A stretch of DNA of 47,732 nt from the IMG/VR virus record IMGVR_UViG_2562617057_000003, one strand, 5' to 3'. The position numbers were made by a program, and so were the translations under genes. The stretch's first letter is position 1. The number at the start of each line of letters is the position of its first letter. The notes beneath the pieces were generated by a model. The model searched no databases and was not told the DNA's origin. It saw only the letters and a list, made by a program, of their open reading frames with translations. Source of the stretch: a virus. Its lineage: Duplodnaviria; Heunggongvirae; Uroviricota; Caudoviricetes. Shown in pieces: positions 394 through 978 of the stretch.

Positions 394-683
394 CCGACAG
401 CGATATCGAAATCATCAAACGTCAATGGGGTGCGTTTTACGGTACGGATCTGGAGTTGCAATTACGCCGCCGAGGTATCGATACAATAGTGTTATGTGGG
501 ATCTCGACCAATATCGGTGTTGAATCCACCGCCCGCAATGCCTGGGAACTTGGCTTTAATCTGGTGATTGCCGAAGACGCCTGTAGTGCCGCCAGCGCCG
601 AGCAGCACAATAACAGTATCCACCATATCTACCCGCGCATCGCCCGTGTGCGTAGCATGGAAGAGATCCTCAACGCGTTATGA
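394..683 (+). pseudogene. yecD: yecD (isochorismatase-family hydrolase) 3' portion, separated from its 5' part by the IS1 insertion
   Basis: The frame is open directly from the IS1 end: [63 protein letters not shown]...EEILNAL, matching the YecD C-terminus; no start codon of its own. Confidence 0.75.
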
Positions 684-775
684 TTTACATCGGTCTACCG
701 CAATGGTCGCATCCTAAATGGGTGCGGTTGGGGATCACCAGCCTTGAAGAGTATGCCCGCCACTTTAACTGCGTG
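680..775 (+). pseudogene. yecE: yecE 5' fragment (about 32 codons), truncated by prophage integration
   Basis: ATG at 680 overlaps the yecD stop (ATGA); [32 protein letters not shown] matches the YecE N-terminus as recalled, then the frame diverges and stops at 788-790. Confidence 0.6.
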
Positions 776-978
776 ATACGGGATTTTTAAAAATCACTAA
801 AGAACGCCCAAGAGCATGTGTTTTCTTTAGAATAATCAAAGCGTTGGATTGCCATGCCATATGAAAATCGGCAAAGTTCATATGTAACAAAGTGTCCCAA
901 TCATGCCCCAAAATGCCCCACAACAAATATTTTTGCCCCATGCATGCCCCAAAAAATCACTTTCCCTCACTCTTGACA

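Follow-up and report, generated by a model that had tools for sequence, protein, structure and literature searches.

A yecE attR with candidate arm-type integrase sites stranded in a prophage that carries a lambda-type integrase

The segment between positions 755 and 951 of the window, the term used here for the whole 47,732-nucleotide stretch of DNA analysed, is likely, with considerable confidence, the attR site (yecE'-core-P arm) of a phage of the phiP27/933W family, and the repeats at 892-951 would be the arm sites of this phage, now orphaned. Judged from sequence comparison, the TGCCCCA motifs in this arm are very probably the places where a phiP27/933W-type integrase docks with its arm-binding domain, and their pattern is the one expected for arm-type sites of a heterobivalent tyrosine integrase. 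The earlier note on this DNA had suggested that the repeats are integrase arm-type sites. The comparison with related phages supported this reading: the motif occurs in both attachment arms, its geometry is conserved and the cognate integrase possesses an arm-binding domain. The arm sites in the window are stranded from their cognate integrase, and nothing within the window can use them.

The window begins in disrupted bacterial DNA. Its first 395 bases comprise a fragment of IS1 insB and the IS1 end, sitting in yecD; the IS1 fragment at 1-378 splits this gene, whose 3' end runs to 683 with a stop codon that overlaps the yecE ATG at 680. In the EIEC genome CFSAN029787 (NZ_CP011416.1), where yecD is annotated as complete, the alignment with the window starts only at base 396. 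This alignment start and the IS1 sequence in yecD indicate that the host side of the junction has itself been disrupted. The prophage that follows the junction looks complete and is lambdoid in its gene content. A DinI-family gene (1038-1286; Pfam DinI, E = 1e-19) and an ipaH effector gene (1887-3638; IpaHd in the annotation of near-identical E. coli loci) are followed by tail, head, lysis, replication and immunity genes, mostly on the minus strand, and then by an exonuclease gene, xis and the integrase gene (46614-47732), the stop codon of which ends at the last base of the window. The ipaH-family gene codes for a type III secretion system effector, an E3 ubiquitin ligase, and lies as a moron between dinI and a tail-fibre assembly gene. 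The presence of this moron and of IS1 in yecD points to Shigella or EIEC as the source of the DNA.

The DinI-family gene is preceded by a dinI-like promoter with the -35 hexamer TTGACA at 973-978 and by two LexA-box-like CTG-N10-CAG sites at 979-994 and 1007-1022, which together form a 20-nt imperfect inverted repeat. This SOS-controlled dinI module (973-1286) is common to thousands of prophage loci, whatever their att site. An RNA element in the region was considered and rejected: the Rfam scan of positions 500-2000 returned no credible RNA family, only a sub-threshold match to CssrB (chromosome-encoded Shigella sRNA B) on the minus strand at 1356-1428, scoring 23.8 bits where the gathering score is 76 (E = 0.026), which is probably not significant. 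In phiP27, PPompW and Tritos, a stretch homologous to 1356-1428 comes after the att arm.

On its bacterial (B) side the junction retains a 5' fragment of yecE of 32 codons on the plus strand (680-775), identical to nucleotides 1-96 of yecE in K-12 (JM109). From 776 onward the sequences diverge, with GAGGGC in yecE and ATACGG in the window. In two megablast searches covering 5,426 complete E. coli genomes, those with an intact yecE aligned up to window position 775 and never beyond. The initial reading, a yecE frame intact for about 32 codons and diverging near 776, was thus exact, and the att junction that it placed within yecE proved to be the true prophage-host junction (775|776), located at the att site known for phiP27 and Stx phages.

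A comparison of attB, attR, attP and attL placed the att core, or identity segment, at 755-775 on the plus strand (GCCCGCCACTTTAACTGCGTG). The match of this segment to attP is imperfect across the 21 bases; the part that matches the CharmingMan attP perfectly is 767-775. The 11-bp att annotated as attL and attR in phiP27 (TTAACTGCGTG; AJ298298) corresponds to window 765-775. For yecE-integrating Stx phages, a 21-bp att was determined by sequencing the attP of excised circles, and the length of the segment 755-775 agrees with this experimental value (PMC8112680). The host sequence in the window hence stops within codon 32 of yecE, at the att core already known, as in the attR of a yecE-integrating prophage.

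On the phage side, the octamer WTGCCCCA occurs at 903-910, 913-920, 933-940 (a TTG variant) and 944-951, always on the plus strand. The four copies between 903 and 951 reported at the outset were confirmed, and a degenerate fifth copy was found at 892-899. With start-to-start spacings of 11, 10, 20 and 11 bp, the five copies read as two 11-bp doublets and one extra copy. Candidate arm-type sites 1 (GTGTCCCA, 892-899) and 2 (ATGCCCCA, 903-910) are the two halves of the first doublet, the latter being invariant in all seven aligned attPs. The extra copy, candidate site 3 (ATGCCCCA, 913-920), separates the two doublets and has a degenerate counterpart in phiP27 and CharmingMan. The second doublet consists of candidate sites 4 (TTGCCCCA, 933-940) and 5 (ATGCCCCA, 944-951).

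A repeat search independently recovered the cluster as a 21-nt direct-repeat family. Could it be a chance or low-complexity run without function? The C-rich and A-rich composition of the stretch is all that speaks for this reading, and the number of exact WTGCCCCA octamers in the entire 47.7-kb window, six on both strands, is close to the 4.8 expected from shuffles. However, four of the six lie within 49 bp on one strand and just two fall outside the cluster, an arrangement with a chance probability of about 1e-8 (a Poisson estimate from the shuffle counts). Moreover, the position and orientation of the motif are conserved in phages whose flanks are only 36-57% identical. Copy clustering and cross-phage conservation refute a chance origin, to which we assign a negligible probability. 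A further direct repeat, AAAAATCACT at 789 and 952, is not conserved in relatives and is for this reason regarded as a chance occurrence.

The sequence that carries the repeats belongs to a known class of attachment arms. Homology to bases 776-960 was found in the arm next to att of PhiR49_2 (96%), P-EibC (93%), and phiP27 and CharmingMan (77-79%); in the Stx2e phage phiP27 the homology begins about 10 bp past the annotated attR core. The phage-side arm of the window thus corresponds to the attR-adjacent arm of characterised yecE phages. Bases 776-961 were found only together with the yecE junction, in 323 of the 5,426 genomes (about 6% of complete E. coli), whereas dinI homologues elsewhere, at thousands of prophage loci, share sequence with the window just from about 962 onward. 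Since the former segment is tied to the yecE junction and dinI is widespread, the repeats are part of the att arm, not of dinI.

The same comparison bears on the idea that the repeats are regulatory sites, either activator or UP-like, of the LexA-controlled dinI-like promoter at 973-1022. Between the end of the last copy (944-951) and the downstream -35 hexamer TTGACA lie 21 bp, and the adjacency of cluster and dinI is kept in PhiR49_2, P-EibC and CharmingMan. Thousands of dinI-like loci, however, share the promoter from about 962 and lack the repeats, several members of the phage family (phiP27, Stx2 phage I, KPP5665-2, IdasGreatGrand and Tritos) carry the repeats with no dinI beside them, and the same motif recurs inside int in the other arm. 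A role in dinI regulation is therefore very improbable.

The module was also encountered outside its chromosomal setting. The phages phi80 (JX871397, approximately 23210-23526), mEp237 and PPompW integrate elsewhere and carry an internal relic of the yecE'-core-P-arm(-dinI) module, annotated in phi80 as a yecE pseudogene fragment. The relics of phi80 and mEp237 retain four heptamers and are missing the copy equivalent to window position 913; in PPompW the heptamers have decayed. These relics suggest that their ancestor left yecE by aberrant excision and later gained a new int-att module. The second att arm was also sought in O121 strain 201805972, the closest E. coli match, but the far end of its yecE prophage is degraded, with int absent and the 3' part of yecE truncated, which made it unsuitable for the comparison.

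If the repeats are arm-type sites, the motif should recur in the P' arm, and the earlier note had named its absence there as grounds for rejecting the proposal. A P' doublet was present in every cognate phage examined. In phiP27, PhiR49_2, CharmingMan and the attL of CFSAN029787, two (A/T)TG(C/T)CCCA copies in the same orientation and 11 bp apart lie about 60-85 bp before the core, within the last codons of int. The CharmingMan genome is permuted, so that its attP is intact. In 80 IMG/VR loci coding for close Int relatives, the 3' end of int likewise carries this P' doublet, and its position there is unchanged. Most of these loci end at the int stop codon and the others continue without a P arm; no further heptamer cluster was detected downstream in those running past int, as expected for integrated prophages. 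The two P' copies are read in different reading frames and the encoded peptide varies (YVPMMSH, FAPQMPQ, RAPDVPQ, YAPSLPQ) while the DNA heptamer is kept, which indicates that selection acts on the repeat as DNA.

The cognate integrase is a protein of 437 amino acids with the Pfam domain Arm-DNA-bind_2 (PF12167) followed by a Phage_integrase catalytic domain. The PF12167 match, with E = 4.6e-24 for the phiP27 Int and 1.7e-24 for the CharmingMan Int, identifies a dedicated N-terminal arm-binding domain, and the N-terminal 70 residues are highly conserved among the integrases of the family. A tblastn search of phage genomes returned 247 records that encode relatives of this integrase, including the wrbA-type Stx phages (933W group, 68% identity) and phages of Klebsiella, Salmonella and Yersinia. 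The conserved N-termini fit a single arm motif shared by the family in combination with a divergent core specificity. A PDB sequence search returned no solved arm domain of a PF12167-type integrase, and in the open-access literature we found no paper describing arm sites or the TGYCCCA motif for the phiP27/933W integrase family.

Six intact attPs were compared, those of CharmingMan, KPP5665-2, IdasGreatGrand, Stx2 phage I, FSL SP-016 and Tritos. Their integrases are 60-86% identical to the phiP27 Int and their cores differ. In every attP a P' doublet lies within int, the P arm holds from one to three doublets, and the interval between the first copies of the P' and P arms is nearly constant (209, 207, 208, 211, 207 and 207 bp, respectively). 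In a seven-way attP alignment with 36-57% overall identity, the doublets were the main invariant blocks; the 'reconstructed attP' row of this alignment contains a 6-nt duplication at the splice point, a script artefact that leaves the conserved blocks unaffected. A repeated non-core motif thus occupies both attP arms, as five P-arm copies in the window and as the P' doublet in its relatives, and the motif and its geometry are kept throughout the integrase family in spite of divergent cores and flanks. The number of arm-site copies is variable: the P arm of Stx2 converting phage I (AP004402) consists of three tandem 31-bp units, each with one doublet (six copies; 2162-2245 of the excerpt examined), as against one or two doublets in most members.

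Conservation alone cannot fully separate integrase sites from excisionase sites, because the Xis proteins are homologous across the phages of the same family. The repeats might thus be bound by Xis, another recombination directionality factor or a different accessory protein instead of Int, and tandem direct repeats in the P arm do resemble the Xis sites of lambda. The lambda Xis sites lie in one arm only. Both arms contain the motif studied here, separated by a constant interval of about 210 bp; in lambda such an arrangement is the signature of Int arm-type sites. The N-terminal arm domain of Int is at least as conserved as the motif. Furthermore, two other conserved elements, at 784-816 and 858-884, are free as Xis candidates. 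An accessory-protein function of the repeats is accordingly quite unlikely, and recognition by the arm-binding domain of Int is the preferred reading.

The first of these elements is a conserved core-proximal block on the plus strand (TTTTTAAAAATCACTAAAGAACGCCCAAGAGCA, 784-816), a candidate site for an accessory protein such as Xis/RDF or similar. It contains AAAGATCGYCCARGAGC, which is kept at the same position in six of seven attPs otherwise 36-57% identical. The second is the dyad CATATGAA-N11-TTCATATG (858-884, plus strand), an inverted repeat that may be the site of a dimeric accessory protein; phiP27 alters both arms of the dyad jointly (CATACG.. / ..CGTATG). Since Xis is homologous across the family, one of these two elements is the likeliest predicted Xis site. 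Between the core and the arm sites, AATCAAAGCGTTG (834-846, plus strand) is a perfect match to the IHF consensus (WATCARNNNNTTR), one of four such matches on both strands of the whole window; CharmingMan and the attL of CFSAN029787 have a further perfect match, located between their P' doublet and core. A consensus scan found perfect matches just in the yecE-type attPs and in Tritos, and they were missing from several family members. As they are not a family-wide feature, the assignment of IHF binding to 834-846, and of IHF sites in general, is tentative.

The far end of the prophage does not match this arm. In the window, which stops at the end of int, the cognate int and an attL (P'-core-'yecE) were not found at the opposite end of the same prophage; the integrase encoded there (46614-47732) carries the lambda-type domain Arm-DNA-bind_1 (PF09003) and has no significant similarity to the phiP27 Int. 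Three E. coli genomes contain a stretch 100% identical to the 3' 833 bases of its gene. One of them, CFSAN029787, was examined: the matching int adjoins potC there, and between yecD and int this genome and the window are collinear, with 88-99% identity and several gaps that did not align. The att arms of this potC type bear TTTTGGRGA as a repeat; in CFSAN029787 it stands three times in tandem immediately beyond the int stop codon and recurs on the potB side. These repeats are probably the own arm-type sites of the lambda-type Int. No copy of TTTTGGRGA was found in the window, the last base of which is that of the int stop codon.

CFSAN029787 also contains the missing counterparts. One reciprocal junction reads potA-potB-tail genes; the other comprises xis, the 437-aa Int, a precise attL and then the rest of yecE and yecN. 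This Int is 96.6% identical to the phiP27 Int, and together with the yecE attL it lies about 0.8 Mb from the window-like prophage. The two hybrids are accordingly potC-int(lambda type)...dinI-yecE'-yecD, with which the window is collinear, and potB-tail...int(437 aa)-'yecE. Such reciprocal junctions imply that two lambdoid prophages of opposite orientation, residing in yecE and at potB/potC, underwent homologous recombination with each other. In CFSAN029787 this recombination inverted about 0.8 Mb and swapped the prophage ends, and the window is most simply read, from its collinearity, as the same inversion product.

These observations decide against an intact, excisable prophage in yecE whose resident Int uses the repeats, a reading that takes its appeal from the uninterrupted run of the window from the junction via tail, head, lysis and replication genes and xis to int. 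Against it stand the PF09003 type of the resident Int and its dissimilarity to the phiP27 Int, the identity of its 3' 833 bases with the gene adjoining potC in CFSAN029787, the TTTTGGRGA repeats of potC-type arms that the window lacks, and the reciprocal junctions potB-tail and Int(437 aa)-'yecE about 0.8 Mb away in that genome. We consider this reading extremely unlikely. The assumption of the earlier note that the arm sites go with the prophage's own int was accordingly abandoned: the resident Int is of the PF09003 type, its gene adjoins potC in the closest relative and its arms have other repeats. With a non-cognate int at the far end, the core that the note expected beyond int would not be found there.

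We propose the following sequence of events for the preferred reading, in which the repeats are arm sites of the phiP27/933W-type integrase. A lambdoid phage of this integrase family would have integrated into yecE at codon 32. Its P-arm arm-type sites would be the five DTGYCCCA copies at 892-951, bound by the N-terminal Arm-DNA-bind_2 domain of the 437-aa cognate Int; the same domain would also recognise the matching P' doublet, which lies within the 3' end of int at a distance of about 210 bp, and the C-terminal domains of the protein would bind the core. IHF and Xis may bend the arms at the candidate sites 784-816, 834-846 and 858-884, so that arms and core would assemble a lambda-style intasome for integration and excision. 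The present prophage is best read as a recombinant; its other end carries a lambda-type Int with a different arm specificity.

Whether the orphan attR could still be live, through a re-inversion driven by Int and Xis or as a landing site for incoming yecE-type phages, is doubtful. Re-inversion would need, as in CFSAN029787, an intact phiP27-type Int/Xis and an inverted yecE attL about 0.8 Mb away; SOS-induced Int/Xis could then turn the yecE-potC segment around, which would make yecE whole again and join both prophages in a single one. As another possibility, incoming yecE-type phages, for example Stx phages, could land in the intact 21-bp core, as is known from the equivalent PPompW relic.

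The use of yecE as an integration site was already known from the phiP27 record and from PMC8112680. What the comparison adds is a candidate arm motif, TGYCCCA, arranged in 11-bp doublets about 210 bp apart, for the integrase family of phiP27, 933W and Stx phages. This geometry could help to delimit attP, attL and attR in Stx and ipaH prophages and could guide attP engineering. This ipaH-carrying prophage, with its non-cognate ends from a prophage-prophage inversion, is predicted to be unable to excise precisely, and the case cautions that the far-end int of a prophage need not match its att arm. For basic biology the importance is little.

In the lambda attP, the arm-type sites P1, P2 and P'1-P'3 are bound by the N-terminal domain of lambda Int. 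The phiP27-type attP resembles it in that a short non-core motif lies in both arms about 60-180 bp from the core, in tandem copies about 10-11 bp apart, with IHF-consensus sites between arm sites and core, a span of about 270 bp and an integrase with a separate N-terminal arm-binding domain. It differs from lambda in the motif, TGYCCCA, in an arm domain of the type PF12167 instead of PF09003, in the higher number of copies (two in P', two to six in P), which are arranged as doublets, and in the position of the P' sites inside the int coding sequence; the sites described here are moreover predicted from sequence.

The closest known systems are phiP27 (AJ298298) and the Stx1a/Stx2a phages of O145:H28 (PMC8112680), with which the window shares the target gene, the breakpoint and the core (TTAACTGCGTG within the 21-bp att). 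Its P arm is homologous to that of phiP27 at 77% identity. Neither the annotations of the phiP27 record nor PMC8112680 mention arm sites. While these phages have attL and the cognate int at the other end, the window has a lambda-like int of the potC type. The PPompW module (attB-in-PP_1) and the relics of phi80 and mEp237 are the same yecE'-core-P-arm module, and the 21-bp core in PPompW is still an integration target for Stx2a phages (PMC8112680). Those relics are internal to phages that integrate elsewhere (ompW or the phi80 att), whereas the copy in the window is the original chromosomal junction with yecD upstream. The 'region III, arrangement gg' of Stx2 converting phage I (AP004402), of the 933W type, shows the same heptamer doublets at the same distance from the P' doublet and differs in its core and host target, which is wrbA; the record annotates its heptamers merely as repeats, with no function. 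Measured against these systems, the junction in the window is a textbook attR at the documented yecE site, and its predicted arm sites are of the ordinary lambda-style kind.
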